Assembly (NCBI GenBank): GCA_046328995.1
Contig: JAXLVN010000003.1
Span: 431,784-495,783, forward strand
Direction of reading: 5' to 3'
DNA: 64,000 nt
Origin: Candidatus Kapaibacterium sp.
GTDB lineage: Bacteria > Bacteroidota > Ignavibacteria > Kapaibacteriales > UBA961
Under the pieces are notes generated by a model, which had not been told where the DNA came from, ran no database searches, and was given only the letters and a program-made list of their open reading frames with translations. Shown here in pieces: positions 9,383-46,831 of the stretch. The translations under genes and the position numbers were made by a program. Positions within the stretch are counted from its first letter, which is position 1, and every line of letters begins with the position of its first letter.

Positions 9383-9386
9383 CGAG

Positions 9387-20402: not shown

Positions 20403-20476
20403 TCGGTGTGGCGGGATTTGAACCCACGACCCCTACTACCCCAAAGTAGTGCGCTACCGGGCTGCGCTACACACCG
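20403..20476 (-). tRNA. tRNA-Pro (anticodon GGG), 74 nt, CCA not encoded
   Basis: Hand-folded cloverleaf: acceptor CGGTGTG/CACACCG, D-stem GCGC, anticodon stem CTACT/AGTAG with loop TTGGGGT, T-arm GTGGG-TTCAAAT-CCCGC. Confidence 0.8.
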
Positions 20477-31498: not shown

Positions 31499-33139
31499 TT
31501 ATGAAAAATCCTGGGTAATATCACGCTGCTGCCGGGTAGAATAGAATTTAAACTCATTCGGCCGCACGACATCACTTTGCTGCAGTTTTATCTTGAGGAA
31601 ATGTTTAATCATCAGGCGTGAGAGCTTGGAAATCGACCCTTCGAGCAGGTATTCTGCCATCGTCGGATGCACAAGCAGAAGCAACGAAAATTCCCGTGAA
31701 CCCATGCGGAAGGTATGCAGCCAGCGTTCTATCGCATTGAAAATCACCGATCGTGACTGCACGCGACCCGTGCCGGCGCAGGTCGGACAATTATCACTCA
31801 GGCGTTCGGTAATATTCTGACGCACCCGTTGACGGGTAATCTGCATAAGTCCCAGCGGAGTAAGCGGATACACCGTCGATTTCGCGCGGTCGCGATTCAT
31901 CTCCCGTCGCATTTCATTAAATACTTTCTTGCGGTTTTCCTCAAACGCCATGTCGATAAAGTCGATAAGAATAATACCTGCTGCATCACGCAACCGGAGC
32001 TGCTGCGCCACGGCATAGACGGCTTCAAGATTGGTTTTGAGAGAGTTACGCTCTTGCTCGTGGTCGCTCGACGCACGGCCGGAATTCACATCCACGACAA
32101 ACATCGCCTCGGTCTGATCAAGTACGATCGAGCCGCCGCTAGGAAGTGTAATTTTGCGGGCATATGTGTCAGAAATCGCCTTTTCAAGTCGGTACGCGTC
32201 GAAAATCGGCTTTTTACCGGTATATAATTCTACTTTGGATGCCAGATCCGGTGAAGCCCAATTGAGGTAATTGGTGACTTCATTGTATAATTTCTTGGAA
32301 TCGACTGCCACGCGCATCACATCATTCGTAAATAAATCACGAATCACGCTTCCGGTGAGGTTTTTATCGCGGTAGAGGAGGGCAGGGTGGTTGTTGGATT
32401 TCTTTACATTTTCCTCAACTTCTTTCCAGATATCGAGTAAATGTTCCCAATCGCGGCGGAGTTCGGTTTCGCTCTTTTCTTCGGCAGCGGTCCGGATAAT
32501 ACATCCAAATCCTTCCGGCAGAATAGACTTAGCAAGTCGGCGAAGTCGCTTGCGTTCTTTAATAGACTGAATTTTTCTCGACACACCAATCGCAGACTCA
32601 AATGGCATAAGCACCACATAGCGCCCGGCCATCGACACTTTTGTGCTTACGCGCACGCCTTTGGAGGAATATGCCTCGCGCACGACCTGAACGATGATAT
32701 TTTGCTTGGGTTGGAGACCAATCGACACCACGCCCGAACGTTTGGTAGAGAACGTCGGCAGCGGTTTTACGGATTTTTTGGACTTCGACGGAGATTTACG
32801 GAGCGCCATCGCAGCCGAATCGGTGAGTTTTGCGTCGGCAATCGGCGGGAGGAACGGTTCGTCGTCATCCTCATCGTCATCTTCTTCTTCGGTAATGAAC
32901 GAATCTTCGAGCGAAGAGTCCACATCCGAGAAATGCAGGAATCCATCCTGACCAATACCAATATCGATAAAAGCGGCATTCATTCCTTGAATGACTTTGC
33001 CTACTCTACCCATGTAAATATTGCCAACTAAACGCTCTTTATCGGGAATTTCTATAAAAAGTTCGGCAAGGTCGCCGTTTTCGGTAATCGCTATTCGCAC
33101 CTCATTGAGGGCGGCGTTTATAATAATTTCTTTCTTCAT
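31499..33139 (-). CDS. rng: Ribonuclease E/G family protein (RNase G-like) with an acidic insert
   Basis: S1 domain (..GNIYMGRVGKVIQGMNAAFIDIG..), DNase-I-like catalytic region, Zn-link CPTCAGTG; insert EEEDDDEDDDE. Start taken at MKKEII. Confidence 0.8.
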   Translation of the reverse strand: MKKEIIINAALNEVRIAITENGDLAELFIEIPDKERLVGNIYMGRVGKVIQGMNAAFIDIGIGQDGFLHFSDVDSSLEDSFITEEEDDDEDDDEPFLPPIADAKLTDSAAMALRKSPSKSKKSVKPLPTFSTKRSGVVSIGLQPKQNIIVQVVREAYSSKGVRVSTKVSMAGRYVVLMPFESAIGVSRKIQSIKERKRLRRLAKSILPEGFGCIIRTAAEEKSETELRRDWEHLLDIWKEVEENVKKSNNHPALLYRDKNLTGSVIRDLFTNDVMRVAVDSKKLYNEVTNYLNWASPDLASKVELYTGKKPIFDAYRLEKAISDTYARKITLPSGGSIVLDQTEAMFVVDVNSGRASSDHEQERNSLKTNLEAVYAVAQQLRLRDAAGIILIDFIDMAFEENRKKVFNEMRREMNRDRAKSTVYPLTPLGLMQITRQRVRQNITERLSDNCPTCAGTGRVQSRSVIFNAIERWLHTFRMGSREFSLLLLVHPTMAEYLLEGSISKLSRLMIKHFLKIKLQQSDVVRPNEFKFYSTRQQRDITQDFS

Positions 33140-33289
33140 CGGGAATGTTCGTGCGTAAAATAGATTGCTGTGCGCCAAATATACGGAAAAATACACTCTT
33201 AGCAGGGCATCGGTAGGAAATTACTTGGTTGCTTCTCAGAGTTAACTACTTGGTGAAGTATGAAGTAACGGAGAAACCGCCTAAAAATA

Positions 33290-33400
33290 AAATTGGTCAA
33301 GCTGACCGTAACACTCTGAGAGCAAACTGACCGTTGCTTCCTTCCGGACCTGGCGGGGTTGGGTTCGTCTCAGTCGCACGGGACTTGACCAAGCGCAAAA
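33290..33400 (-). ncRNA. ffs: Signal recognition particle RNA, small (4.5S) type
   Basis: The minus strand contains CAGGUCCGGAAGGAAGCA, the conserved SRP domain-IV motif. It is embedded in a closed helix (GGTCAAG ... CTTGACC) and followed by a T-rich tract. Confidence 0.8.
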
Positions 33401-33618
33401 CTACGGAAAATTGCCCATTCTGCCAAAAAAAGGGTAAAAATAACTTTCAGAGAGAAGGAGAAGTGAGTTCGGTTCTGCATCTTCCCACCGCGCGTCTGCG
33501 GTCACCCATGGCCGTCCAAGCCGAGAGGAGAAAGGCATTTTCGTTATGTCGGTAGAGGCGCGATGCACCCGTGTCTCTACAGGATCATCCGGATTTATCC
33601 GGTGGAGGAAAGATTACT

Positions 33619-34359
33619 TCACCACGCCCGAATAACCTCCACTCCAAACGAACGCCCCACAGCCGTCGAAATCGTCCCGGTCAGATCATGCGCCAGTATT
33701 TCAATCGTCACGCCGCGGGAGACTGACCACCGCGCGCCGAGATTCATAACGAGATGAAGAGTATTGGTTGCTGCCGGAGAGGCGAGGATGATTTCCGGCA
33801 GAAGTGCTATCGTCGGCCCGATGGATTGTTCGACACCGGCATATCCTGCAAGCGCATGCGCTCCGCCGTAGAATCCGCCATGAAGAGCGGTCGCGCCGAG
33901 GGGTGAACGGAAATTTTTACTGATTGAAATCCAGCCGCTCATCGAATGTGATTGCAGGTACTCCTGACTGAAGAGTCCGTTGGACCGGGAGGAAATGCCG
34001 ATGGCGATGGCAGGGAAGGTGCGCTTTTCGTCCACAAGGCGGTACCTCGCGCTGATGGCGGGCATCAATACTTCAACCGGCGCGGCGCTGATGGCATTCC
34101 GTGCTGTAGCAGTGAGAGCGAGATTGAAATTTTTAAAAATTGCAGCCGAGAAGTCTGCCGTGAGATTACCCTGCGGCGCAATTCGTATTCCAAGGCAGTA
34201 GGTGGAGACAGGAAGTACACCGGCAGTAGGCATATCCACGATTGATCGGGACTCGAATAATGCAGCGCTGCCGGCAGTCGCCTGCGCTCTGGTCGTGGGG
34301 ATATGGGCGAAAGCAACAAAAAGGCAGAACACGAGAAAACAGGAGGATGAACGACACAT
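33619..34359 (-). CDS. Hypothetical outer-membrane beta-barrel protein
   Basis: Signal peptide, alternating beta-strand pattern, C-terminal ...GVEVIRAW with a terminal Trp. Confidence 0.45.
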   Translation of the reverse strand: MCRSSSCFLVFCLFVAFAHIPTTRAQATAGSAALFESRSIVDMPTAGVLPVSTYCLGIRIAPQGNLTADFSAAIFKNFNLALTATARNAISAAPVEVLMPAISARYRLVDEKRTFPAIAIGISSRSNGLFSQEYLQSHSMSGWISISKNFRSPLGATALHGGFYGGAHALAGYAGVEQSIGPTIALLPEIILASPAATNTLHLVMNLGARWSVSRGVTIEILAHDLTGTISTAVGRSFGVEVIRAW

Positions 34360-34473
34360 AGATGTTAATTAACCCCACAAAACGGAACTTTTACCGTTCT
34401 CGGAAAGTATGCAGAAAAGTGAAAAAGAGTACGCCATATCCATATTTCTCCAACGCTTTTTCCTACTTGTACT

Positions 34474-34725
34474 ATGACTGATGTATTTACAACGTTTTCT
34501 GAAGTGTATCGTGCGCTTGAGCAGTACATGCTTTCCGTCGGTGCGCCGCCACGCCAAATCTCACTCCCTACGGTTCTCTACTTTCAATTACTCGAGATTC
34601 AGGCAGAGCAGGCAATGCTTGCCGAGTCGGAATTCCCGTGTTATATTTATCTGACGACGGACTACGGCGATATCCCTGTCGTGCTCGACGACCAGCTTCC
34701 GGGTGATTATATCTCTTTGGAATAA
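34474..34725 (+). CDS. Hypothetical small cytoplasmic protein (83 aa)
   Basis: Only ORF in a 460-nt gap. Non-repetitive, protein-like composition; no motif. Confidence 0.3.
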   Translation: MTDVFTTFSEVYRALEQYMLSVGAPPRQISLPTVLYFQLLEIQAEQAMLAESEFPCYIYLTTDYGDIPVVLDDQLPGDYISLE

Positions 34726-34819
34726 TTGATACTTCACGATGATGTGTTCGCACAGCGCCGCACCACGTGCGATGAATATTCTCTGCACCGGTGCGACGTT
34801 GCATTACGAGCCATCATAC

Positions 34820-36028
34820 TTATTCCTTCACCAATTTCTGCATCACCGATTCACGACCGCATTCAGCGCGAAGGAGATAGACTCCGCTTGCCAGATTGCT
34901 TGTTGGGATATGTGCGACGTCATCCGAACATTCAACAGACTGCATCAATTCACCCATGACGTTTACGAGGGTCAGACGGATGGTGCGCCCATGCCATTGA
35001 GCCGGAAAACGCAGGGATGTGCCTGTATTTCCTGCGGGTTGCGGGAAAATTTTCACTGAATTTTGCGCTTCGTATTCTTCTTCTTCTACACCAACGGGCG
35101 TATAGGGCTGGCGATAGATGCCGTCATCGGTGCCGGCGATCAGATAATCTTTGGTAATGATGAGACTATTGACACTCGGATTACCTAAATTTTGACGGAA
35201 TTGCTGCCACGAGCGGCCACTGTCAGCCGAGGCAAAGACGCCGTCTTTACCCGTACCGACATAGAGATAATTATATTTTCCACCCATGGTGATTGCACGG
35301 ATTTCGCGTCCTGCGATGCCGGCACTGATGTCGGTCCAGGAGCTGCCGCTGCTGAGTGAACGGAATGCGCCGCCGCCAAGTGTACCGGCATACACAAGGG
35401 AAGTGCTTGGAGAATAGAGAGCTTTGACAAATGGATTCGTAACACCGGTATCGGACTTGAGCCATGTGGCGCCGTTATCAGCCGAACGGAAAATACCATT
35501 GCCGAAGGTGCCGGCAAAAATGGTTTCTCCATTCATTACCATAGAATAAATCCATTCATTGCTTAGCCCTTTTGCTTGCCAATTTGCTCCATTGTCTGTC
35601 GAGACATAGATGCCTGTCACATTCGTACCGGCAAAGAGATAGGCGCCGTCACGTACCATGAGCGACTGTACGGAAATTCCTTTCGGAATATTGCCGTTGG
35701 CATCGGTCCAGTTCTGTCCGTTGTCGTCCGAGCGAAGCACACCTTCGCCGGCTGTCCCGCAGAACATTTTATCGCCTTTTGCGATCAGCGTGAAAATCGT
35801 GCGTGTCGGTAATGCTATGCGTTTCCAAGTGTTACCATCGGATTCGAGCTGATAGACACCTTCATTAGTGCCCGCGAAAAGAACGCCGTCTTTCTCGGCA
35901 AAGCAGTAAGCGGAGGTGCCTTGGAAGGACATTTTTTCCCAATTCTGCGCCGATACAGTATTGTTCAAACACAGAAAGAAGGCAAGAAGCAGGGGTAAAA
36001 ACGCAGGTAAACGTCGTAGAATAGTCAT
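34820..36028 (-). CDS. BNR/sortilin-Vps10-like repeat protein with a T9SS C-terminal sorting domain
   Basis: Repeated ..S.D.G.TW.. BNR motifs (SDDNGQNW, STDNGANW, SADNGATW, SADSGRSW). The C-terminal 80 aa (KIFPQPAG...GVYLLRAECGRESVMQKLVKE) matches the T9SS type-A CTD pattern. Confidence 0.7.
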   Translation of the reverse strand: MTILRRLPAFLPLLLAFFLCLNNTVSAQNWEKMSFQGTSAYCFAEKDGVLFAGTNEGVYQLESDGNTWKRIALPTRTIFTLIAKGDKMFCGTAGEGVLRSDDNGQNWTDANGNIPKGISVQSLMVRDGAYLFAGTNVTGIYVSTDNGANWQAKGLSNEWIYSMVMNGETIFAGTFGNGIFRSADNGATWLKSDTGVTNPFVKALYSPSTSLVYAGTLGGGAFRSLSSGSSWTDISAGIAGREIRAITMGGKYNYLYVGTGKDGVFASADSGRSWQQFRQNLGNPSVNSLIITKDYLIAGTDDGIYRQPYTPVGVEEEEYEAQNSVKIFPQPAGNTGTSLRFPAQWHGRTIRLTLVNVMGELMQSVECSDDVAHIPTSNLASGVYLLRAECGRESVMQKLVKE

Positions 36029-36387
36029 GATAATTCCCTCAAATACTGAGTAAAAAGAGTTGTTGATTATTTTTCATGTGCAAATTTACGGTAATACGGG
36101 AAATGTTGGTAGGAAACACTGTATTTCAGCGATAAAAGTAAGCAGACAAGCACCCGGTACGAGTATCCGAGCCTTGAATGACGGCAACGCACGCACGTAT
36201 GAAGTATCGAAAAATCAAGATATCGTGCTCCGGCGAAGGAGAGGGCGGTAGATAGTGCTCCGTAAATAAACTCTATATTTGTAAGGGATAAATTAAATAA
36301 CAGTCCTGTTATTTACATACATGACTTTTCAGAACAATCTCTCACAACACATACATTCATATTATCAATAATTGAATCATTCAGCAT

Positions 36388-39300
36388 ATGAGAATACTTG
36401 GTACTCTTTTGTTCATGGCTTGTATCGTTTTGCAATTAAACGCTAATGCGCAGTCCTCCGGCTGGGCGGATTCGGCGGGCTACAAGCAGCAAATTATGCC
36501 GACGAAGTCGATTCGTCAGGTGCTCTATTCTCCAAGTGGAGACAGACTCTATAGTGTCCATCTCGATACACTCTATAGAATTAGTCATTGGGATGCTGTA
36601 ACGGGGAAACTGCTTCGGAAGCAATCTATTGATTCTTCAGGATATAAGTTACTGTACTCAGTGACAATCGCAAATGATGGATTGACTTACACGGTTTGTG
36701 GTTTGCAGGTGAATGATAGTTGTACAGCTAAAATCTATTCTCTCAACACTGATGTTCTTTTGAATAGCGTAACGTTGAAGTTAAAAAACAGCTCTGAAGT
36801 ACAGGCAAGTACGGCTATCTATGACTCAACGCTTAGAATTTTGCGGGTAAGGTTCGAGGCAAGTGATGTCTATGGCATGCCGCCAAGCGGATCTCGATAC
36901 GGCGGCGTATTTGAATACAGTCTTGTTGATGGTAAACAACAGTTAAAACATTCAGAAAATGGTGTAACGAACAAATGGAGTACTGCTAGTGGAATAAATG
37001 TGTCAGCATGGGTTGGATTTTACCATAAAGTAATACTTAGCTACAAAGGTGAGGTTATAGAAGATACCCGGTGGATGAAATCTATACTTTGGAATGACAC
37101 TATCCCAATTCGAGAAGACCTGCCATTTGATATTCTAGGTTCGCATCCTATATTTAGTCAGTATGCACTGAATTATTTCCCTTTACTTACTCCCGACGGG
37201 AAGCACTTTTGTATGATTGATCATCAGGTGTTGCGTCACAGAACTCTCTCGCCATATGCGTTGGTGTCCACGATTACATTGCCATTTATACCGACTTTTG
37301 CCCAAGTGGCTCCTACGAATAATCATATTCTTATGAGTTCGGGACGTTCTATTATCCTTTATGACATTTTTGCCAATTCTATCACCGATACGCTTTCTCT
37401 GACATTCGAGAGTATTTCGGCGTCATTCAGGCCTCAATCGCATACGGTGGTATTTGCATCACGTGACGGATACATGCGCACTCTTGAGTTGCCTTTTTCA
37501 ATGCCTAGTATTCCCAATGACTTTCGTGCGGACAGTACGACAGCATATACTGATTCTGCCATTACCTTTACCGTGACAACACGCCGAGTACCTCTTCGCC
37601 TTCGATGGGATTTTGGCGATACTACCACGGATTCGACCCTAAGTGTTATTCACCGATATAAATCGCCCGGCACATATTCTGTTCAATTATTTATCACCGA
37701 CTCATCCGGCACGATAGATACGATTATGAAGAAAGACTATATTTCAATACTTCCATCGTTGATTCCTGATTTTAGCGGAACGCCGCAGTATGGCATATCT
37801 CAGCTTGACGTGCAATTCACCGATAAATCCAAAGGGAATATTATTACATGGTTGTGGGATTTTGGAGATAAACAGGTCGATTCCGTGCAGAATCCGAAGC
37901 ATACATACAGTGGTCATCGCTATTACAATGTGACGTTGACTATCAGCGACGGATTTACGGTTGCTACAATTGTGAAACCTATGTTTATCAATCTCGATAC
38001 AATTCCAAGTAACTCGATAATGGTACGGCAAAGGTGGATTTCTGGTGCTCTCTCATATATTGGTACCCCGGGAAATTGGAGGCGAATCGAAAACACATTC
38101 TCAAAAGGAATTCTTGGTAATGATTCCAAACTCTATGTATATAGTCGAGAATGTGGTGTTGAATCGTATAAAGGTCCTGATCCAACTCCTTTAGTATCGT
38201 ATAATTGGCAACAAAGTATTTCGGTATTTGACAGTTCGACAAGTCAGTGGAAAATCGATAAATCCTATTCACCCCCTGATTACTCACCTATGAATATCTG
38301 TCAAGGAACAAACTCGGCATACAGTGGATTCCAAATTATTCGATATAGAAATCGGTATGTTACATCTTTTACTGGCTGGGTGAGGTCATTGTCATATATT
38401 ACCATTCCTTCAATAATGTTCTTTTCTAATGGGCGAGTTTTTACACCCTCCGGCTGGACACATGACTTCAATGGTGCATTTTTGCCGGACGGCACTGATA
38501 TCTACCTCTTCAATCACGGTACTTCTACCTCCATTCAGTTTTTTATTGAAGATAGTGTTCTCATCGCCCGAGACTCGATGGTCGGTGAAGTAATGAAGCC
38601 GCTCGTATCCATTGATTCACAGAATGTTAGTATTATTTCTAACCTTTATTCCGGCAAGGGGGATAGTACGCGATGGATGATTGTACGCACCTATTCATCA
38701 GAAGGGCTGCTGCTTAGTGAGAAGAAGATTGTAAAAACGCGGACTATCCATTTGACTGATGCAGCGAACTTCGGTTTGGGGGATTTTCTAGTCACCGGTT
38801 GGGTTACTTCAACCGACTCTCTTGGAATTAAGCACGACTCCGGGTATATCGCCAAGCTTGGTTCAGACGGTCGCATCGCCTGGGAGTATTGTGCACCAGC
38901 GTGGAAACAATTTAAGAAAATAGAAAAACTCAGCACGGGACACTATGCCGCTTGGGGCATTCCTCTCGATGGATTTAATCATGGTTTCCTTGCTTTCCGA
39001 AGCGACGGAACAATCCTTTCGGACAATCGGCTTGTCGGCGCACAGAACGGATTTTCGCCGTCGGATTTTGTGGTTGGTGCAGGTACCAATTCGCTGTGGT
39101 TCATAGGTTCGGAAAGTGTGCCGAATCAGGGTCAGCGAGCAGCGGTGTATTTATGTACGAATCCCATGTCAGCAGTGACTTCCGTAGCTGAGGGAGAGGC
39201 GTCGGATCGTGCACCGTCAACATTCTCGGCGGAGGTATTTCCGCTTCCTGCCGTTGACCGAATGACGGTACGGCTGAGCATTCCCCGCGCAGCAAACGTG

Positions 39301-39474
39301 CGTGTATCGATGGTATCGGCTCTTGGCACGGAGCAGGAATATCCGGCGGAACATGTCAATGCAGGTATGAATGAATTCACGCTATCGACCGCTGCCCTCC
39401 CGACCGGGATGTACATTCTCTGTATTCGTTTCGATAGCGAAAGGTGCGTGTGTCCGGTAGTTGTCCTTCGATGA
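36388..39474 (+). CDS. Large secreted protein (paralog A) with two PKD domains and a T9SS C-terminal sorting domain
   Basis: Signal peptide; WDFGDTTTDS...YKSPGTYSVQL and WLWDFGDKQVDSV..HTY..YYNVTLTISDG PKD signatures; C-terminal VFPLPAVDRMTVRLS...GMYILCIRFD T9SS CTD. Confidence 0.75.
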   Translation: MRILGTLLFMACIVLQLNANAQSSGWADSAGYKQQIMPTKSIRQVLYSPSGDRLYSVHLDTLYRISHWDAVTGKLLRKQSIDSSGYKLLYSVTIANDGLTYTVCGLQVNDSCTAKIYSLNTDVLLNSVTLKLKNSSEVQASTAIYDSTLRILRVRFEASDVYGMPPSGSRYGGVFEYSLVDGKQQLKHSENGVTNKWSTASGINVSAWVGFYHKVILSYKGEVIEDTRWMKSILWNDTIPIREDLPFDILGSHPIFSQYALNYFPLLTPDGKHFCMIDHQVLRHRTLSPYALVSTITLPFIPTFAQVAPTNNHILMSSGRSIILYDIFANSITDTLSLTFESISASFRPQSHTVVFASRDGYMRTLELPFSMPSIPNDFRADSTTAYTDSAITFTVTTRRVPLRLRWDFGDTTTDSTLSVIHRYKSPGTYSVQLFITDSSGTIDTIMKKDYISILPSLIPDFSGTPQYGISQLDVQFTDKSKGNIITWLWDFGDKQVDSVQNPKHTYSGHRYYNVTLTISDGFTVATIVKPMFINLDTIPSNSIMVRQRWISGALSYIGTPGNWRRIENTFSKGILGNDSKLYVYSRECGVESYKGPDPTPLVSYNWQQSISVFDSSTSQWKIDKSYSPPDYSPMNICQGTNSAYSGFQIIRYRNRYVTSFTGWVRSLSYITIPSIMFFSNGRVFTPSGWTHDFNGAFLPDGTDIYLFNHGTSTSIQFFIEDSVLIARDSMVGEVMKPLVSIDSQNVSIISNLYSGKGDSTRWMIVRTYSSEGLLLSEKKIVKTRTIHLTDAANFGLGDFLVTGWVTSTDSLGIKHDSGYIAKLGSDGRIAWEYCAPAWKQFKKIEKLSTGHYAAWGIPLDGFNHGFLAFRSDGTILSDNRLVGAQNGFSPSDFVVGAGTNSLWFIGSESVPNQGQRAAVYLCTNPMSAVTSVAEGEASDRAPSTFSAEVFPLPAVDRMTVRLSIPRAANVRVSMVSALGTEQEYPAEHVNAGMNEFTLSTAALPTGMYILCIRFDSERCVCPVVVLR

Positions 39475-39630
39475 TGGAACGATGGAATGTTGGAATGTTG
39501 GTAAGATTTTAATGTAGAATAGGTATTATAACAACTTAATGAGAAAAAAGAAAGATAGCGCACTGTTTGAGATATAGTGAAAACTTATTGGAAAGATTAG
39601 TAAAAGCTCCAAGAACTTTCAGGAGAATAT

Positions 39631-42600
39631 ATGAAAATCATTTATCTATTTTTTATAGCCATATTATGCATTGTAGATCATCAATCTTCCAATGCGCAGT
39701 CCTCCGGCTGGGCGGATTCGGCGGGCTACAAGCAGCAAATTATGCCTCTCAAATCTATCATGCAGGTGCAGTATTCACCGGGAGGAGATACGTTGTACAC
39801 GGTGAGCCGGGACTCGCTCTACAGGATCGATCACTGGGATGCTGTGACGGGTAAGCTGCTGAAAAGACAGACAATAGTAGCGAAAAAGTTAGTGAAGATG
39901 CTGTCGGTAACCTTGTCAATGGATAGACAGACTTATGTCGTCTGTGGTACCGAATCAACCAATACGCTTCATTTTCTCATTTATTCAATGACGACCGACA
40001 GCTTGATGTTTGAAATTAAGCCCCAAAGGTCATTTGGCAATAGCAATTCATATGTGGATTGTTCGGGAGATGTCGAGACGTCGTTGGGCATCATTACCAT
40101 ATATTTCACGCTTGTGGATAATCAACTAGGCCCTGATGGTCCGAGCGGTAGTCGTAACGGCCAGATTTCGCGCTACAAAATTCAGGATACTACCCTACAA
40201 TTGATAGGGACGCATTTGGGAGCGGTAAAAAAAGTCGCCTATACACCAAACAAAAACATCTACACATGGATATCCTACCAGGTAGTAAAAAAGTATTTTA
40301 GATCTAGCCTGTTAAACCATTCTGAATCTATGAACTACAACTGTTCAATGAACGATTCTCTTGTGATACAAAACGAACTACAATTTGAATGGGAGGGTTC
40401 TAATGTTGTAAATAGTGATTATGCATTGAGTTATTATCCGGTGCTGACGCCGGACGGTGCACATTGTTTTTTTATAGAAGGACCACATCTGCATCAGTGG
40501 TCAGTGGCTCCTTTTGCATTTCTCTCGACGAAGAATATTGGATTTAGCTCTACGTATGTGCTTGCCGAACCTGAGGGTACCCATGTCATGTTTGTCAAAG
40601 GTAAGACCTTATATTTTTACCATATAGCGTCATCGACAATGTCAGATACCTTTCAATTGACTTCACCACCGGTAATGTGTGCATTCCGTCCAAATACTAG
40701 GGAAATGGCATATTGTACAGCGTCAGGGAACCTATGTATCAGTAATCTCAAGTATCGAATTCCCTCGATTCGTACTACATTTACAGCGACACACACACTT
40801 CTGTACAAAGATTCGACAACAGTTTTCTCCGTAGTCAGGAGCAAGAAGTATCGGCACTATGAGTGGAATTTTGGCGATGGTAGGCTAGGAAAGGGTGAAG
40901 TGGTGCCGCATATATATCAAACGAGCGGAACATATACTATCGTATTGATAGCCACCGACAGTCTAGGGCAGAGTGATACAATAGAGCGCAGAGACTACGT
41001 GCGGGTATTGCCGATGTTAGAACCACGCTTTACCGGCTCGATTCGCTATGGCAACGCTCCTCTTACGACACAGTTTACCGATGAGTCTTTAGGAGCAATC
41101 ACCTCGTGGGAATGGAATTTTGATGATGGAACGAAAGATACTGTGCCGCATCCGAAGCATACTTTTCAGGAACGACGGTATTATTCTATCACATTGAAAA
41201 TCTCGGACGGACTAAGTACCAAAGTGCTGACCAAGTTTGCTTTTGTGAATGCAGATACGATGTATGTGAATACTGTGCGTATTCATACACGACTAATCGA
41301 TGCTACGCAAAATCTAATACGAGGAATAGAAGGGTCATATCAATCCGATGATTGGTATAAAAACAAATATACAAAGGGCGGACTTACGGAAGCAGGAGAT
41401 CTCATTGTTTATAGATCTGAATGTTATACTCGTGTAGGTAGTTATGGTGCTACATTCTATTATCCCAAGCAAGGAATATTGTCAATCTCTGCCGATGCGA
41501 AACAATCAAGTACGTTTTTTTCTCAATTGGCTCATAATCCAAGTTCGTCAAATATTTGTGATATTACTTTTACTAATCCCGGTCAAATGATAATCCGTCC
41601 CCGAGATGGCTCGTATATATCTTCGTTTGATCCAATTTATTGGACTGCACCGAGTGGTCAATCGCCTCATGGAATATATATTTCCAAAGTAGGATTTTTT
41701 AAGCCTATCGGGTGGTCGAGTAATTTCGATGCTGCATTCCTACCGAATGGTAACGATGTGTATGTCTTTCGTACTGTCAAAGGAACAATCATAGATTTCT
41801 TCAAATCTGATACCATCCTCATCGCCCGTGACTCGATGGTCGGTGAAGTTATGAAGCCACTCGTTTCGATTGATTCTCAACAGGTAAGCATCATTTCTAA
41901 TCTCAATTCCGGCACAGGTGACAGTGCTCGATGGATCGTACAGCGGACGTATTCATCAGCAGGACAACTCCTTGAGGAAAAACATATCCTGAAGAATATC
42001 AGCAATGTACGTCTGATGGATGCAGCAAGTCTCGGCTGGGGAGAATTTCTCCTTTCAGGATGGGTCACGACGACCGATTCCCTCGGTGTTCGCCGTGACT
42101 CGGCATACCTCGCCAAGCTTGGTTCTGATGGCCGCCTTGCATGGGAGTATCTGACGCCTACGTGGCGGCAATTCAAGAAAGTAGAAAAACTGAGCACCGG
42201 GCATTATGCAGTCTGGGGAATTCCGCAGGATGGCTTTAATCATGGCTTTGTAGCGGTGAAGAGCGACGGAACAATCCTTTCGGACAATCGGCTTGTCGGC
42301 GCACAGAACGGATTTTCGCCGTCGGATTTTGTGGTTGGTGCAGGTACCAATTCGCTGTGGTTCATAGGTTCGGAAAATGTGCCGAATCAGGGACAACGGG
42401 GAGCGGTGTATTTTTGTACGAATCCCATGTCAGCAGTGACTTCCGTAGCTGAGGGAGAGGCCTCAAACGGCTTTCCGGCATCATTGTCGGCGACGGTGTA
42501 TCCACAGCCCGCCGTTCATAGTATGACAGTACGACTGACTGCGCCGCGAGGAGGAAAAGTTCGGGTTGCAATTGTATCAGCTTTGGGCACCGAACAGGTG

Positions 42601-42735
42601 TATCCGGAGGAAGAAGTCGAAGCAGGGACAAGAGAATTCATGATATCAACAGCAGCATTATCGACCGGAATGTACACACTCTGCCTACGTATGGACGGCG
42701 AAATGTGCGTGCGTCCGGTGGTGGTGGTGCGGTGA
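39631..42735 (+). CDS. Large secreted protein (paralog B of 36388..39474) with two PKD domains and a T9SS C-terminal sorting domain
   Basis: Same architecture as A: WNFGDG..GEVVPHIYQTSGTYTIVL and WEWNFDDGTKDTVPHPKHTF..YYSITLKISDG PKD signatures; C-terminal VYPQPAVHSMTVRLT...GMYTLCLRMD T9SS CTD. Confidence 0.75.
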   Translation: MKIIYLFFIAILCIVDHQSSNAQSSGWADSAGYKQQIMPLKSIMQVQYSPGGDTLYTVSRDSLYRIDHWDAVTGKLLKRQTIVAKKLVKMLSVTLSMDRQTYVVCGTESTNTLHFLIYSMTTDSLMFEIKPQRSFGNSNSYVDCSGDVETSLGIITIYFTLVDNQLGPDGPSGSRNGQISRYKIQDTTLQLIGTHLGAVKKVAYTPNKNIYTWISYQVVKKYFRSSLLNHSESMNYNCSMNDSLVIQNELQFEWEGSNVVNSDYALSYYPVLTPDGAHCFFIEGPHLHQWSVAPFAFLSTKNIGFSSTYVLAEPEGTHVMFVKGKTLYFYHIASSTMSDTFQLTSPPVMCAFRPNTREMAYCTASGNLCISNLKYRIPSIRTTFTATHTLLYKDSTTVFSVVRSKKYRHYEWNFGDGRLGKGEVVPHIYQTSGTYTIVLIATDSLGQSDTIERRDYVRVLPMLEPRFTGSIRYGNAPLTTQFTDESLGAITSWEWNFDDGTKDTVPHPKHTFQERRYYSITLKISDGLSTKVLTKFAFVNADTMYVNTVRIHTRLIDATQNLIRGIEGSYQSDDWYKNKYTKGGLTEAGDLIVYRSECYTRVGSYGATFYYPKQGILSISADAKQSSTFFSQLAHNPSSSNICDITFTNPGQMIIRPRDGSYISSFDPIYWTAPSGQSPHGIYISKVGFFKPIGWSSNFDAAFLPNGNDVYVFRTVKGTIIDFFKSDTILIARDSMVGEVMKPLVSIDSQQVSIISNLNSGTGDSARWIVQRTYSSAGQLLEEKHILKNISNVRLMDAASLGWGEFLLSGWVTTTDSLGVRRDSAYLAKLGSDGRLAWEYLTPTWRQFKKVEKLSTGHYAVWGIPQDGFNHGFVAVKSDGTILSDNRLVGAQNGFSPSDFVVGAGTNSLWFIGSENVPNQGQRGAVYFCTNPMSAVTSVAEGEASNGFPASLSATVYPQPAVHSMTVRLTAPRGGKVRVAIVSALGTEQVYPEEEVEAGTREFMISTAALSTGMYTLCLRMDGEMCVRPVVVVR

Positions 42736-42873
42736 TGGAATGATTGCAGAGAGTTATGCGGAGCGTACAGATAGAGGCTGGTGTTTTGAGTAAATTTAAC
42801 GTCCGCGATTTCGGCAAATCTCCGTAATTTGCACCTGAAATTACATTGTTATATTCTCAGTACGGAGTTGATT

Positions 42874-43374
42874 ATGTTTCGAAAAATTGACGATTTCCTC
42901 AGCAGCTGGACGCATGAACATGATGCGACTATGAAGGTATTGCAAGCACTTACCGATGACTCGCTCTCGCAGCGCGTCTATGACGGCGGACGCACACTCG
43001 GCTATCTTGCCTGGCATATTACCCTCACTCTCTCGGAAATGATGAATCGCACCGGCCTCATCGTCCAAGGACCCGCCCACGATGCACCTGCTCCATCGTC
43101 AGCCGCCGATATTGCTGCTGCATACTCTGCGTCCTCGGCGTCGCTCGTCCAAGAAATTAAGGATAAATGGACCGATGAGACCCTTACTGAAACAGATGAC
43201 ATGTATGGTGAAATATGGCCACGCGGCATTACTCTTGCTGTGCTGATCAATCATCAGGCGCATCACAGAGGACAAGTTACCGTGCTCATGCGTCAAGCCG
43301 GACTCAGCGTTCCGGGCGTCTATGGTCCGTCGAAAGAAGAATGGGTGGCCTATGGTATGGAGCCGTTAAACTAA
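42874..43374 (+). CDS. DinB/YfiT-like (DinB_2) metal-dependent hydrolase superfamily protein
   Basis: About 166 aa four-helix-bundle type with His ligands (..LAWHITLTLSE.., ..INHQAHHRGQ..). Confidence 0.55.
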   Translation: MFRKIDDFLSSWTHEHDATMKVLQALTDDSLSQRVYDGGRTLGYLAWHITLTLSEMMNRTGLIVQGPAHDAPAPSSAADIAAAYSASSASLVQEIKDKWTDETLTETDDMYGEIWPRGITLAVLINHQAHHRGQVTVLMRQAGLSVPGVYGPSKEEWVAYGMEPLN

Positions 43375-43498
43375 GAAAATAGAGCTCAATCTCCATGGCT
43401 CTGCGAACTTTGCGAACCCCTTGCAAACTTTGCCGTTAAAAGTCGGTTGACTATTCTAAAATTTATATAATTGATAGTATAGAGGTTCAAAACTGCGT

Positions 43499-44506
43499 AT
43501 GAAAATAGCGATACTAACCGGTGGTGGTGATTGTTCGGGAATGAATGCTTTTGTGCGGGCTGCTGCACGTTCGGCGCTGAATATGCGCGCGGAAACCTCC
43601 GTTTGGGGTGTCATTGACGGATGGAAAGGGTTGATATATAATAATTACCGTAAATTGGACAAGCTCGCCGTCGCCGGAATCGCCTCCTCCGGCGGAACAA
43701 TCCTCGGCACCGTGCGCGTACCCGAGCTCGCGACGGACACTTCCCTTCAGGAAACCATTGCCCAAAATCTCCATGATAATCACTTCGATTATCTGCTCGT
43801 CTGCGGTGGCAATGGCAGCGTAAAAGCTGCGAATACCATCAATTCTGTTATTCATCGTGAAGGTTTGCGCACGAAAATCCTCGTCGCGCCGGGTTCGATT
43901 GATAATGATGTAGCCAATAACACAGGTTCGTCCCTCGGCTTCTACAGCGCGCTCGACAAAAGTCTGGAAATGCTTGAATGGATTCGGGATACAGCCAGCG
44001 CGCACCGGCGCGTGTATCTCATTAAATCGATGGGACGTGACTCGGCGTACTTGGCGTATTATGCCGGAATTGCCACGGGCGCTGAATATGTAATTTGTCC
44101 AAATGAAAATGTAGATTACGAGCTCGTCGCCTCCATGATCGACGAACGTGACCGCGATACGAGAATCATCGTCGCCGAAGGATACGAAAAATCCGTCAAC
44201 GAAATCCGGGAAATCCTCGAACAAATCTTCCGCAAGCGGAATCAAATCCACGAGATACGCACCGTGGACATGAGTTACTTCCAGCGCGGCGGCAAAGCAG
44301 CAGTCACGGATATTCTCCGCGCAAGCTGGGTAGCATTCCGCATGGTAAAAGATGCGTTTAATAAATGCGGGAGTGGGTTTTATACTGCTTTTTATACCGG
44401 ACACAAGCCGCCGGTAATCCCGCTCGACATCGCTGCTGATGACTCGCAGACAAGCCATATCGATATACCGGATGATATTCTGGAATTGGCGCTGGCGCTG
44501 CGGTAA
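43499..44506 (+). CDS. pfkA: ATP-dependent 6-phosphofructokinase
   Basis: MKIAILTGGGDCSGMNA...; ..LLVCGGNGS..; ..PGSIDND.. catalytic motifs; 335 aa. Confidence 0.85.
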   Translation: MKIAILTGGGDCSGMNAFVRAAARSALNMRAETSVWGVIDGWKGLIYNNYRKLDKLAVAGIASSGGTILGTVRVPELATDTSLQETIAQNLHDNHFDYLLVCGGNGSVKAANTINSVIHREGLRTKILVAPGSIDNDVANNTGSSLGFYSALDKSLEMLEWIRDTASAHRRVYLIKSMGRDSAYLAYYAGIATGAEYVICPNENVDYELVASMIDERDRDTRIIVAEGYEKSVNEIREILEQIFRKRNQIHEIRTVDMSYFQRGGKAAVTDILRASWVAFRMVKDAFNKCGSGFYTAFYTGHKPPVIPLDIAADDSQTSHIDIPDDILELALALR

Positions 44507-44539
44507 AGTATTTAAATTGTTAGAAATAGTAAGAACGAT

Positions 44540-44646
44540 TGTCATTCTGAGTGAGTCTTCGAACGAAGAATCGTACCTTGCTTTATGTCATGCTTGACGT
44601 TACTTCGAGCGTCGATTCTTCGTTCGACGACTCCCTACCAATGACA
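44540..44646. repeat. Long imperfect inverted repeat (34-nt arms, 39-nt spacer) downstream of pfkA; a possible bidirectional terminator or structured RNA
   Basis: tgtcattctgagtgagtcttcgaacgaagaatcg ... cgattcttcgttcgacgactccctaccaatgaca; the inner 15 nt are a perfect complement. Confidence 0.55.
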
Positions 44647-44683
44647 GTTTTATAACTTGTTCTTTTTATATGACTTGCATTTG

Positions 44684-44790
44684 CTGTGACAGAAAGAGTT
44701 TCCCACAGAGTTTCACAGAGTTTTTCACAGAGTTCACAGCGGAATACTGCTGAGTGTGACTCTGTGAGCATACCCTGTGTAACCCTGTGG
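44684..44790. promoter_or_regulatory. Cluster of direct and inverted TCACAGAG / CCCTGTG motifs about 150 nt upstream of the ABC-2 permease gene; a candidate multi-site regulator binding region
   Basis: ctgtgac..cccacagagtttcacagagtttttcacagagttcacagc...gtgtgactctgtgagc..accctgtgtaaccctgtggg. Confidence 0.35.
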
Positions 44791-44931
44791 GAGGATTTCT
44801 TCCGACTACATATAGCGGGATCCTCTTTTGCAAGTACTTGCTGTGTCATTACTTGCTTTTTTGAAAGTCTTTAATTAGGCCTTCAGAACGACATGCATGA
44901 GTAATTGTAGAGTAATGTTTGGTAAATACTT

Positions 44932-45750
44932 ATGAAGCCATTGCCCATCCGAAAATACCTCGCCGTTCTCCGCGTGGGCATTTCCCGCACGATGGAATAC
45001 CGCGTGAATCTTATCGCGAGTTCACTCTTGTGGACCGTGATTTCCGTTTTTGTACAGGCAAGCGTATGGAAAGCGGTATATTATTCCTCCGGCAAGCACG
45101 TAGCCGGCGTTTCTGCTGACACCATGCTTCTCTACATCGTTTGTGCGTCGCTGTGCCTGGCGTTTACTCATTCCAAAAGCGTTGAACGCACGGCGGCGGA
45201 GGAAATCCGCAATGGCGAACTCAACAAATACCTCCTCAAGCCGATTTCCCATCTTTTGTATACGTTTTCCGCTTCGATTGCCGACCGCGCATCGACGGTG
45301 ATTTCGATACTTGTGCTTTCGACGGCGGTGGCTGTGCCGCTTGTACTGTATGGTGTAATTACTTTGTCCATAGCAAGTTGCGCCATAGCTGTCGGATTCC
45401 TGTTTCTAGCCATCATCCTCCGTTTTTTAATGAGTATGATGATCACCTACATCGCATTTTGGCTTGACGAGACATGGACGTTCCACGTTGTGCTCGATAT
45501 TTGCCTCTGGTTTTTATCCGGCATGATGCTCCCGATGAGTATTCTTCCCGAATCGGTGCGGCATGTGTCGGATCTCCTTCCTTTTCAATTCCTTGCGTAC
45601 ATTCCCGCGGGCCTGCTCTCCGGCAGTATTCCCATCGTCGATTCGTGGAAATTACTCCTTATTGCCACATCATGGATTCTCATTCTCTGGGCTGCAACAA
45701 TGGCGCTCTGGCGACGGGGGATTGTAAAATTTGGGGCGTATGGAGGGTGA
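44932..45750 (+). CDS. ABC-2-family transporter permease-like membrane protein; no partner ATPase in the window
   Basis: 272 aa, 6 TM; N-terminal ..LRVGISRTMEYRVNLIASSLLW.. resembles the ABC-2 permease family of unknown substrate (COG4587-like). Confidence 0.5.
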   Translation: MKPLPIRKYLAVLRVGISRTMEYRVNLIASSLLWTVISVFVQASVWKAVYYSSGKHVAGVSADTMLLYIVCASLCLAFTHSKSVERTAAEEIRNGELNKYLLKPISHLLYTFSASIADRASTVISILVLSTAVAVPLVLYGVITLSIASCAIAVGFLFLAIILRFLMSMMITYIAFWLDETWTFHVVLDICLWFLSGMMLPMSILPESVRHVSDLLPFQFLAYIPAGLLSGSIPIVDSWKLLLIATSWILILWAATMALWRRGIVKFGAYGG

Positions 45751-45891
45751 GAGAACAAGAATTTATTGGGTTCGCATCATCGAATTCCCAATCACAGTCT
45801 GTGGACACCCGTTGCCGTCCAGGCGTTCAAGAAATTCGGAATACTCTTATAATCTGTTGTAAAGCTTTAGAATATATGACGTTGTTTTTTT

Positions 45892-46819
45892 AATGAAGTT
45901 GTTTAGGATTTCGATTGTAGCTTAAATTTTCCAATTTTCCTTAGAAAGATGACCGAGAAAGCCAACAGATGGAGCGAGAACCATGTATCAGCTTGCGTTT
46001 CGTAGCGTACGAATAACGCTTTATAAGCATCTATCCATGCGTTGGTTCTTTCAATTGCGGTTCGTCGTTTATAGAGCTCTTGATCGACAAACTCTTCGCG
46101 GTCATAGACAGAACCATTACGTGGATTGAGGTCAATATTTGCAATGATACCGTTTTCTTGACATACTTGCCGGACTTCAGCGGTATCAAAGCCTGCGTCT
46201 GCATTGAGAAATAAACCGTCAATTTCAATATCTGCTTCTCGGAGCAGCTTAAAAATTTGATTCATGAATTCAGCAATCTTGTAAACATCGTGATGATTGC
46301 CTTCAATCGGTTGACACACGGAAACAGGTATGCCTGAATTATCCGATAAAAGTAGTATATTCGTTGTGTTACCTGACTTTCGATGCTGATAACCGACCGC
46401 TTGTCCACCGCGTTTGACGAGGGTTTGACTCCCGTCAAGTTGAATACTTGAGAGGTCAAGGCAGTGTTTAAATCGTCGTAGAAGTCCAACCCAAAGACGA
46501 CGAAATGAACCATCAGCAACCCATCTGCGAAAATGGTAATAGACAGTAACCCATCGTAGTTGGGCAGACTCTGCTAACTCTCGCATCGGTAACAAACGCC
46601 ATTGACAGCCCGTTTTAAGGCGATACAATATTGCCTGAACCACCATGATAATATCTTTAGATTTGCTGCCACGGCTGCCAATCGACAGATACGGCAAATA
46701 GTATTCTTCTATATGTGCTCTACTCAACATAGTTCCCTCTTTGATTAATTTAGTTTGTTGTTATCCTAATCTAATCATTTGGGAACTATGTCCTTTAAAA
46801 AATACTAAACAACTTCAAT
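45892..46819 (-). mobile_element. IS5-family (IS4/IS5 DDE) insertion sequence, about 930 bp, apparently intact
   Basis: A single transposase ORF flanked by imperfect terminal inverted repeats aaTGAAGTTGTTTAG (45892-45906) and CTAAACAACTTCAat (46805-46819). Confidence 0.7.
45903..46730 (-). CDS. IS5-family DDE transposase
   Basis: 275 aa with N-terminal ..ILYRLKTGCQWRLLP.. (HTH characteristic of IS5/IS1182 transposases) and a DDE region ..LDGSQT...LLSDNSG...NADAGFD....RTAIERTNAW.. Confidence 0.8.
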   Translation of the reverse strand: MLSRAHIEEYYLPYLSIGSRGSKSKDIIMVVQAILYRLKTGCQWRLLPMRELAESAQLRWVTVYYHFRRWVADGSFRRLWVGLLRRFKHCLDLSSIQLDGSQTLVKRGGQAVGYQHRKSGNTTNILLLSDNSGIPVSVCQPIEGNHHDVYKIAEFMNQIFKLLREADIEIDGLFLNADAGFDTAEVRQVCQENGIIANIDLNPRNGSVYDREEFVDQELYKRRTAIERTNAWIDAYKALFVRYETQADTWFSLHLLAFSVIFLRKIGKFKLQSKS

Positions 46820-46831
46820 GAGAAAAATCAA

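Follow-up and report, generated by a model that had tools for sequence, protein, structure and literature searches.

Probable homologous recombination between head-to-tail copies of a variable, putative T9SS surface protein gene in Candidatus Kapaibacterium

Two neighbouring genes of a Candidatus Kapaibacterium MAG, referred to here as A and B, encode proteins of the same architecture that are only 47% identical and saturated at synonymous sites. How do genes that have diverged this far come to share stretches of identical nucleotides? An initial annotation of the region had proposed ongoing gene conversion or recombination between the copies, with cassette-like variation of a secreted surface protein or a nucleotide-level constraint, such as a recombination site, as further possibilities. 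Below, the window denotes the whole 64-kb stretch of DNA that was analysed (64,000 nucleotides), which lies on a contig of 544 kb. The relatives compared are nine contigs carrying the same locus (L001-L003, L007, L089-L093) and the distant homologs L004 and L008.

The two genes and their surroundings

Both ORFs were recovered as originally described, on the + strand and with a common architecture (Table 1). From the N-terminus onwards the parts are a predicted signal peptide, an all-beta region, two PKD domains, a second all-beta region and, at the C-terminus, a putative T9SS domain; the first all-beta region of A looks like a WD40-type propeller. Both proteins are assigned to the PKD-domain families, with two stretches of each scoring above the curated Pfam cut-offs for PKD_4 (PF18911; 87.6 bits in A and 82.7 bits in B, cut-off 27) and PKD (PF00801; 60.3 and 63.0 bits, cut-off 23.5), and a PDB profile search matched the PKD domains of ColH at E = 8e-16. 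By inspection, each N-terminus consists of M-K/R and a hydrophobic stretch and reaches ...NA before QSSGW, and residues 2-15 form a helix in the AlphaFold model.

As to the designation as a T9SS surface protein, the C-terminal domain lies where a sorting domain is expected (residues 950-1018 of A and 956-1025 of B, covering model positions 1-68 of 75), while the scores were only sub-threshold: Por_Secre_tail (PF18962) reached 19.2 bits in A and 25.2 bits in B against a Pfam cut-off of 27, and TIGR04183 reached 16.9 in A against a cut-off of 23. In a HMMER representative search the last ~95 residues also hit numerous unrelated proteins at their C-terminal ends, consistent with a shared sorting domain. 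A and B are regarded as putative T9SS cargo, with a probable sorting domain whose matches fall below curated cut-offs.

Table 1 Features of the A/B locus, in positions of the window
Feature	Position	Strand	Description
BNR-like gene, neighbour	34820-36028		C-terminal domain match exactly at cut-off, 27.0 bits
TATATTTG, match to TAnnTTTG	36274-36281	+	Motif scan; upstream of A
Gene A, 1028 aa	36388-39474	+	ORF; identical to MFN8360700.1 (Candidatus Kapaibacterium sp. MAG)
Signal-peptide coding part of A, MRILGTLLFMACIVLQLNA	36388-36444	+	Predicted cleavage after ...NA, before QSSGW
56-nt exact block, copy 1	36445-36500	+	Encodes mature-protein start NAQSSGWADSAGYKQQIMP; 61% GC
Small near-identical patch in A, 41 nt	38560-38600	+	2 mismatches, 20-nt exact run
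Probable converted tract in A, 200 nt	39001-39200	+	97% identity to B, 6 mismatches
A-B spacer, 156 nt	39475-39630	+	31% GC
Gene B, 1034 aa	39631-42735	+	ORF with A's architecture; identical to MFN8360701.1
Signal-peptide coding part of B, MKIIYLFFIAILCIVDHQSS	39631-39690	+	Ends ...NA before QSSGW
56-nt exact block, copy 2	39691-39746	+	0 mismatches to copy 1
Partner of small patch in B	41818-41858	+	
Partner of 200-nt tract in B, 200 nt	42262-42461	+	96-97% identity in L007, L091, L092

TAnnTTTG occurs once in the region upstream of A, where it is conserved in L007, L001 and L003. Given the Bacteroidota -7 motif TAnnTTTG, we take TATATTTG at this position to be the probable promoter. The A-B spacer contained no TAnnTTTG and no terminator-like hairpin, and had no match in any related locus; since a terminator between the genes is absent, B is probably co-transcribed with A. 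The signal-peptide coding part of A has no nucleotide homology to that of B and is 93-97% identical in L001. That of B is unique to this genome, all other B-type genes having signal peptides closer to A's; neither it nor the spacer has a counterpart in any related contig. The neighbours scanned were the BNR-like protein, DinB and an IS5 transposase ~3 kb downstream of B, and PFK and an ABC-2 membrane protein were named via precomputed Pfam hits on orthologous loci.

Near-identical tracts within diverged genes

The first shared stretch begins the mature protein. It had been reported as 57 nt long; the identity of its two copies was borne out, whereas its length is 56 nt and its coordinates had been placed 2-4 nt off. 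The block occurs exactly twice, 3246 nt apart from start to start, with 0 matches expected from shuffled windows, and is richer in GC than the gene bodies (41-42%). The identical blocks towards the 3′ end proved larger than first described, forming a 200-nt tract with exact runs of 115 nt (39001-39115 = 42262-42376) and 47 nt (39154-39200 = 42415-42461). On each side of this tract A is of a specific type found in no other contig. A small near-identical patch lies further upstream, and the more conserved 3′ third of the genes starts around 38560-38600. Nucleotide identity outside the tracts is 31-75%, falling to 31-59% in the central part, in agreement with the diverged centre noted at the outset.

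Codon usage separates the tracts sharply from the rest of the genes. Among codons for the same amino acid (Met and Trp left out), the identical codon was used at 164/388 positions (42%) outside the tracts and at 74/79 (94%) inside, and the share of identical fourfold-degenerate sites rose from 34% to 92%. The longest runs of identical codons were 41, 17 and 16; the maximum across 20,000 permutation trials was a 20-codon run, with no run of at least 30 (probability 0). The divergence profile is non-uniform by segment: codons 19-38 have a pS (Nei-Gojobori) of 0.083 and codons 871-938 one of 0.079, whereas every other segment lies at 0.57-0.93. dN/dS was below 1 in every segment, and positive selection was not demonstrated.

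Comparison with relatives gives the same picture. Within the 3′ tract the A-B identity is 0.99, that of A and L003 0.81-0.84 and that of B and L007 0.96, the values at 39004-39123 being 0.99, 0.84 and 0.96; the corresponding values for the gene bodies are 0.31-0.59, ~0.84 and ~0.97. Over the 3′ tract, identity is 78-85% in L001, L002 and L003 and 57-60% in L004 and L008. The tracts thus show the marks of paralog gene conversion, namely low pS, A and B as closest partners, and nucleotides that are not conserved elsewhere. Synonymous divergence ~10 times lower in the tracts, greater similarity there of A to B (99%) than to L003 (81-84%) and the lack of nucleotide conservation in other homologs support recombination or gene conversion between the copies as the source of the identical tracts, as had been suggested from the sequence alone.

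One locus with diverged allele classes

Each of the nine related contigs has a single copy at this locus, in the order BNR-like gene, PKD gene, DinB and PFK; among these and the present genome, both copies occur together in the present genome alone. The two-copy arrangement is known from one MAG contig. The two genes correspond to separate allele classes of this one locus that have diverged deeply. The earlier term tandem paralogs hides this relationship.

The single copy of the relatives is A-like, B-like or of a third type, and types switch at the conserved blocks. Nucleotide identity between gene B and its single-copy counterparts in L007, L091 and L092 is 95%, and the body of A is 84% identical to L003. 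The third body type, found in L001, L002, L089 and L090, is 69% identical to A and about 45% to B, and in these four genes it is joined to a signal peptide that is A-like, while the stretch at 36505-36624 and the 3′ end are B-like. L001 and L002 change allele type across the 56-nt block.

L007 is near-clonal with the window (~99% identity in the neutral flanks) and carries only a B-type gene, A being absent. The alignment of its gene follows the upstream region of the window up to the 56-nt block, where it passes over to B. With only 67-78% identity to A in the signal-peptide and promoter-proximal region, L007 cannot have arisen from the two-copy arrangement by simple deletion. A 3.25-kb unit delimited by the block distinguishes the two-copy from the one-copy form. 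The suggestion that this block is a recombination site survives in the weaker sense of an anchor for homologous recombination, given its place at the edges of the copy-number polymorphism and the switch in L001 and L002.

The gene is dispensable, since an insertion sequence interrupts the B-type gene of L093 and, in L003, a deletion of 88 nt shifts the reading frame of the gene. Mosaicism extends to the neighbouring putative T9SS gene.

Recombination and the alternatives

We consider it likely that homologous recombination, in the form of paralog gene conversion plus allelic exchange, has shaped this locus, whose product is a putative T9SS surface protein that is hypervariable and dispensable. 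In the population one version normally occupies the locus; in this strain two lie head to tail. Conservation at the protein level of the first 18 mature codons and of parts of the last 300 would leave nucleotide homology sufficient for homologous recombination, presumably of the RecA type. Non-reciprocal gene conversion between the neighbours would then have copied, in recent times, at least two tracts within this genome. Transfer of the 200-nt tract most likely ran from B to A, judging from a few alleles; the tract is probably native to the B type, because its B version is 96-97% identical in L007, L091 and L092. Imported DNA may swap the variable body between strains via the same anchors, giving rise to mosaic alleles and changes in copy number. 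The protein would be exposed at the surface through T9SS, and fluctuating or frequency-dependent selection, for example by phages or predators, may maintain the diversity. The conserved blocks are best read as crossover anchors.

The arrangement of the 5′ ends invites a different reading, programmed cassette switching, in which the promoter and signal peptide of A make up a single expression site, with B behind it as a reserve cassette. Deletion, duplication or import at the 56-nt block would then change the expressed mature body, and the locus might be a low-copy analogue of the pilE/pilS or vls systems. The A-B homology indeed starts at the predicted signal-peptide cleavage site, the only TAnnTTTG motif is upstream of A and not in the spacer, single-copy B-type genes all stand behind the A-position upstream region with signal peptides nearer to A's, and the unit that separates one-copy from two-copy forms is bounded by a 56-nt direct repeat. 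However, B starts with an intact ATG and its signal peptide is good, features that a silent cassette does not need, and without an intervening terminator B is probably transcribed together with A. Searches of the 64-kb window by tblastn and blastn returned no copies beyond these two; the cassette-like variation proposed initially was not supported in the form of a programmed system. The 5′ end of L007 is too different from that of A for a fresh switch product, a switch by deletion would be irreversible, and the analysis brought up neither a dedicated cis element nor, among the ORFs scanned in or beside the locus, a recombinase. We regard programmed switching as decidedly unlikely. A minimal arrangement of expression site and reserve cassette, in which the 56-nt and 3′ blocks act as portable handles for swapping, stacking and deleting whole mature-protein bodies behind one promoter and signal peptide, is also unlikely; if true, it would give Kapabacteria a heritable switch of a T9SS surface protein, for example for phage escape.

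Segmental non-reciprocal transfer between copies of surface genes is a feature of Neisseria pilE/pilS, Borrelia vlsE and Anaplasma msp2, where conserved flanks bound the variable segments. In these systems numerous silent, truncated cassettes accompany a single expression site, and switching is programmed and occurs at high frequency. Unlike in those systems, both copies here are complete, there are just two, and nothing hints at programmed switching.

A tandem array seen once in a MAG could also reflect an assembly or polishing artefact, with two strain alleles joined head to tail or similar regions homogenised. The locus is strain-variable, many related contigs end nearby, and each allele type is single-copy in other samples. 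Such a join, however, would require a unique stretch of 207 nt (39484-39690) that encodes, among other things, a distinct and plausible signal peptide and that none of the single-copy contigs contains. The 3′ end of A shares no long exact k-mer with B (about 70% identity), which makes a graph mis-join at this point unlikely. The B versions of both tracts are moreover 96-100% identical in the independent assemblies L007, L091 and L092, and the contig itself is long (544 kb). We therefore think an artefact quite improbable.

The remaining possibility is that a DNA or RNA function, such as a regulatory RNA, a binding site or a recombinase core site, preserves the blocks at the nucleotide level. 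The 56-nt block is GC-rich (61% vs 41-42%) and differs little among close relatives (0 mismatches in L007, 2 in L001, 4-5 in L002 and L003), and 39096-39200 is nearly unchanged across A, B, L007 and L001. Against this, the peptide ESGWVDSxGYxQQ is retained in the distant homologs L004 and L008 although about a third of the nucleotides have changed (~19 mismatches in the block of L004). Over 39001-39095, L001-L003 differ by 15-22%, with many synonymous sites unlike those of A and B, although L001 is 93% B-like on both sides of this stretch. No Rfam match was found in the region, no inverted or dyad repeats occur at the blocks, and the ORFs scanned in or beside the locus include no site-specific recombinase. 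Nucleotide constraint is very improbable, and we discount it because the tract nucleotides are not conserved in other homologs.

Dedicated variation systems were not supported: site-specific inversion or a shufflon, with no relevant invertase-type inverted repeats in 33000-47000 or around both 5′ regions and no site-specific recombinase among the neighbours named above; a diversity-generating retroelement, since the six tract mismatches (G/A, T/A, G/A, A/G, C/G, A/T) are not adenine-specific and the locus and neighbouring ORFs scanned hold no reverse transcriptase; and a pilE/pilS or vlsE-type system, B being a complete ORF in a window without silent donor cassettes.

Homologous recombination at conserved blocks, the preferred reading, has precedents. 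In the tandem, surface-related lipoprotein paralogs (lpl) of S. aureus, a highly conserved nucleotide stretch in each ORF is a site of homologous recombination, flanking variable regions have incongruent histories, and copy number and arrangement depend on the strain (Tsuru & Kobayashi 2008, PMC2568036). The lpl-type pattern is found here, in a cluster of at most two: a conserved block is present in all alleles, types switch across it and the copy-number junction lies at it. Unlike lpl, two copies occur in one genome only, the nine other contigs having one, and the anchors lie at both ends of the mature protein instead of in the middle; the phylum and protein family also differ.

Surface virulence factors of P. 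gingivalis occur as discrete variant alleles or domains whose mosaic is unrelated to strain phylogeny, which has been ascribed to homologous recombination or gene conversion, with negative frequency-dependent selection suggested (Dashper et al. 2017, PMC5266723). Here too, alleles of a putative surface protein form a mosaic in a member of the Bacteroidota. P. gingivalis, however, is a host-associated pathogen in which T9SS cargo is experimentally established, whereas the present case is an uncultured environmental Kapaibacterium with a sub-threshold T9SS match and two allele classes physically in tandem. For Plasmodium falciparum DBLMSP/DBLMSP2, maintained allelic dimorphism is described (PMC10919680), with deeply diverged allele classes of a surface protein that coexist within the species and gene conversion between neighbouring paralogs that moves sequence between these classes; the setting differs in being eukaryotic, with meiotic recombination, immune-driven selection and unrelated proteins.

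Taken together, this is a known kind of surface-protein evolution, met in a new lineage, and it reveals no new mechanism. It provides a clear and statistically strong case of paralog gene conversion and allelic mosaicism in a surface protein of the Kapabacteria, an FCB-group lineage that is uncultured and not host-associated. In practice, the locus can serve as a strain-typing marker, and metagenome assemblies are likely to break there. Between flanks that are about 99% identical, strains differ in gene bodies to the point of synonymous saturation; this divergence, together with repeated inactivation by an insertion sequence or a frameshift and the mosaic neighbouring putative T9SS gene, suggests that the cell surface is under strong fluctuating selection, exerted in an environmental community plausibly by phages or grazers.

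Genes A and B and their family

Genes A and B lie head to tail, and each is a complete ORF (coordinates are collected in the table). Their products (NCBI MFN8360700.1 for A and MFN8360701.1 for B, on a 544-kb contig of a Candidatus Kapaibacterium sp. MAG) each contain two PKD domains scoring well over the Pfam cut-offs. Por_Secre_tail, the T9SS sorting domain, was detected at the extreme C-terminus at 19.2 bits in A and 25.2 bits in B, under the Pfam cut-off of 27, and TIGR04183 matched A at 16.9 bits, under its cut-off of 23. Both N-termini show a plausible signal peptide with ...NA directly before QSSGW, placing a glutamine as the first residue after predicted cleavage in A, B and all close homologs. 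An N-terminal glutamine (pyroglutamate) rule has been described for secreted Bacteroidota proteins, and the predicted mature start of A and B fits it. Comparison with PDB sequence profiles gave a strong match of the family profile to the PKD domains of collagenase ColH and of the Methanosarcina surface-layer protein 1L0Q, and a weak match to WD40 propellers over residues 43-128. The AlphaFold2 model, built from a 7-sequence alignment, was all-beta but poor (mean pLDDT 47); the domain calls are based on Pfam and the PDB sequence profiles, not on this model.

The family has very few members. When the C-terminal 484 residues were run exhaustively with HMMER against 1.84 billion representatives, 14 proteins were recovered at E ≤ 1e-10, 10 of them at E ≤ 1e-30, and most were ~1000 aa long. 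Many further weak matches covered no more than the last ~95 residues and fell at the C-terminal ends of unrelated proteins, and full-length relatives of A and B are few. The metagenome_contigs collection seems to hold no relatives, since no match came from an exact-pattern scan with the degenerate 5' block, nor from a protein-pattern scan using the C-terminal alignment. A scan of genome_contigs with the full-length alignment was dominated by generic PKD proteins, with no true family member among the matches listed.

Upstream of A there is a sole TAnnTTTG motif, which is kept in relatives. B is probably co-transcribed with A, because the spacer carries neither this motif nor a terminator-like hairpin. 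Two 10-nt arms spaced 2 nt apart (TAAATAACAG / CTGTTATTTA) form a perfect palindromic pair downstream of the putative -7 promoter motif and ahead of the A start codon; this could be an operator-like site. The related contig L007 has a different sequence at the promoter-proximal stretch (67% identity across 36306-36455).

Coordinates of features at and around the A/B locus
Feature	Positions	Strand	Remarks
tRNA	20403-20476	-	Rfam
Bacterial small SRP RNA	33292-33390	-	Rfam, 64 bits
BNR/Sortilin-like protein	34820-36028	-	402 aa; T9SS tail match 27.0 bits, exactly the Pfam cut-off
TAnnTTTG motif	36274		putative -7 promoter motif
Palindromic pair	36294-36315		2 x 10 nt
Gene A	36388-39474	+	1028 aa
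Predicted cleavage site (NA/QSSGW)	36442-36450 (A), 39688-39696 (B)		Gln first mature residue
56-nt block	36445-36500 and 39691-39746		exact copies
200-nt tract in A	39001-39200		six mismatches to B
115-nt exact run	39001-39115 = 42262-42376
47-nt exact run	39154-39200 = 42415-42461
A-B spacer	39475-39630		156 nt
Gene B	39631-42735	+	1034 aa
B patch	~41280-41680		diverged from other B-type genes
Inverted repeat	44540-44646		34 nt, 85% complementary, 39 nt between arms
IS5-family insertion sequence	45885-46826		apparently intact
IS5 transposase	45903-46730	-	NF033580, 130 bits
IS5 terminal inverted repeats	45885-45911 / 46800-46826		27 nt

Near-identical tracts in diverged genes

The A and B proteins are 47% identical overall, and the initial annotation was right that the central portion has diverged, with a nucleotide identity of 31-59%. 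The identical block that it quoted, just after the signal-peptide part, is real: it is 56 nt long and present in exactly two copies with 0 mismatches, and shuffled sequence gave no matches to it. In the codon alignment the longest exact runs were 115, 56, 47 and 20 nt, the 115- and 47-nt runs being parts of one 200-nt tract near the 3' end.

Among codons specifying the same amino acid, the same codon was used in 42% of cases outside the tracts (164/388) and in 94% inside (74/79). Identity at fourfold-degenerate sites was 34% outside the tracts, near saturation, compared to 92% inside. A segment-wise check with Nei-Gojobori pS likewise bore out the claim of non-uniform divergence, with values of 0.57-0.93 outside the tracts and of 0.083 (codons 19-38) and 0.079 (codons 871-938) within them. 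The longest runs of identical codons were 41, 17 and 16, against a maximum of 20 over 20,000 permutations. The contrast between the tracts and the rest of the genes does not stem from amino-acid conservation.

The tracts are also GC-rich (61% in the 56-nt block and 53% in the 200-nt tract, together with their B partners; 41-42% in the gene bodies and 31% in the spacer). Either GC-biased conversion or just the make-up of constrained codons might account for this.

Single-copy relatives and the origin of the tracts

Nine related contigs (L001, L002, L003, L007 and L089-L093) share the gene order of the window, namely the BNR/Sortilin-like protein (402 aa, with a T9SS tail), the PKD gene, DinB and PFK. 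Each carries exactly one PKD gene at the locus (9/9). The single gene of L007, L091 and L092 has 95% nucleotide identity to B, and that of L003 has 84% identity to the A body. L002 and the mutually identical L001, L089 and L090 have another, third type of body, with 69% identity to A and ~45% to B. By these comparisons, A and B represent two ancient classes of allele at a locus that usually has one copy. L007 is nearly the same strain as that of the window (96-100% identity in flanking 150-nt windows) and lacks gene A. Because its alignment passes from the upstream region of the window into B from the 56-nt block onward, the one- and two-copy forms differ by a 3.25-kb unit with the 56-nt direct repeat at its borders. 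Recent tandem duplication was rejected, as synonymous sites are saturated between A and B and the strains varying in copy number are ~99% identical in their flanks.

The genes of L001 and L002 are mosaics, with an A-like signal peptide (93% and 87%, respectively), B-like sequence at 36505-36624, their own body type and then a B-like 3' end (93%). Within the 200-nt tract A is 99% identical to B and 81-84% identical to L003, with the A-specific sequence type flanking both sides, and B has 96-97% identity to L007, L091 and L092. This is most simply read as a B-to-A conversion in the window lineage. The stretch 39096-39200 and the 56-nt block are nearly unchanged across several allele types, a pattern that fits crossovers in the population being anchored there. 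B shows 97-100% identity to L007, L091 and L092 over most of the gene; its internal patch differs from them by 9-33% (67-91% identity), matches no sampled allele and was probably imported from an unsampled type.

An assembly artefact behind the tandem is unlikely. The A-B junction requires 207 nt of unique sequence (39484-39690, spacer and B signal peptide) that matches no related locus, no long k-mer is common to A and B at the 3' end of A, and the tracts of B were confirmed in independent assemblies. The signal peptides of all other B-type genes are closer to that of A than to that of B.

Converted tracts and allele mosaics uphold the initial proposal of gene conversion or recombination, whereas its cassette-like element was not supported. 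Although A/B homology begins at the predicted signal-peptide cleavage site and the locus has a single promoter motif, B is a complete gene, there are just two copies in the window and no dedicated element for switching was found, making a programmed cassette switch highly improbable.

The suggestion that the blocks are held by a DNA- or RNA-level function is contradicted, because such a function would predict their retention in other homologs, which do not keep them. Across 39001-39095, many synonymous sites of L001, L002 and L003 depart from A and B, with L001 being B-like on both sides, and the distant homologs L004 and L008 keep the peptide ESGWVDSxGYxQQ with about one third of the 56 nucleotides changed. 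A known RNA family was likewise rejected: an Rfam search of the window found none at A or B, the only matches being the SRP RNA and a tRNA elsewhere. A DGR was discarded since the six mismatches in the 200-nt tract are not adenine-specific, and an invertible promoter or shufflon since no inverted repeats suggest inversion.

Recombination, selection and known parallels

In the most likely model, one of conversion and allelic exchange, purifying selection on the first 18 mature residues and on parts of the C-terminal region would create islands of nucleotide similarity. Homologous recombination at these islands would act as gene conversion where the partners are the neighbours A and B; where imported DNA pairs with the resident locus, it would replace alleles and add or remove a copy. 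Further rounds of exchange would make the islands still more alike, and the variable bodies would persist as distinct types. The pathway of recombination, secretion by the T9SS and the selective agent are inferred.

Wherever dS was measurable dN/dS was 0.1-0.5 and gave no sign of positive selection. In L093 (1847-4132), from another sample, the B-type gene is truncated after ~185 codons, with a gene for a 559-aa DDE transposase immediately behind it, so that it has been inactivated by an insertion sequence; the same truncated protein (entry P0122) is encoded in two further contigs. In L003, a MAG labelled Ignavibacteria, the A-type gene (9264-12268) lacks 88 nt relative to window positions 37036-37124 and is frameshifted into two ORFs, a probable pseudogene. 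The adjacent BNR-like gene is mosaic itself, with patches of 76-83% identity to L007 (34806-35105 and 35406-35855) against a 99% background, and a dS of 0.56 compared to 0.03 for the adjacent orf246. The L093 insertion, the L003 deletion, the divergence of the B patch, the mosaicism of the BNR-like gene and the dN/dS range together fit a PKD protein that is dispensable, exposed and under fluctuating selection.

Further downstream, behind the ABC-2 membrane gene, the window carries the IS5-family element and L002, at the equivalent position, an IS110-family transposase; this site is a possible hot spot for insertions. An inverted repeat just downstream of the PFK gene, matched by L002 in both orientations, could be either a terminator or a small repetitive element.

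Among described patterns, the lpl tandem paralog cluster of S. aureus comes closest; in it, a conserved nucleotide region within each ORF serves homologous recombination, shuffling the flanking variable regions and rearranging copies (PMC2568036). A case from the same wide group of bacteria is P. gingivalis, whose surface proteins occur as discrete variants in mosaic through allelic exchange and gene conversion (PMC5266723). Plasmodium DBLMSP, where dimorphic alleles are combined with paralog conversion, offers a eukaryotic parallel (PMC10919680). The finding at the A/B locus is real, statistically solid and mechanistically ordinary, extending a process of known type to a new lineage and a new protein family.
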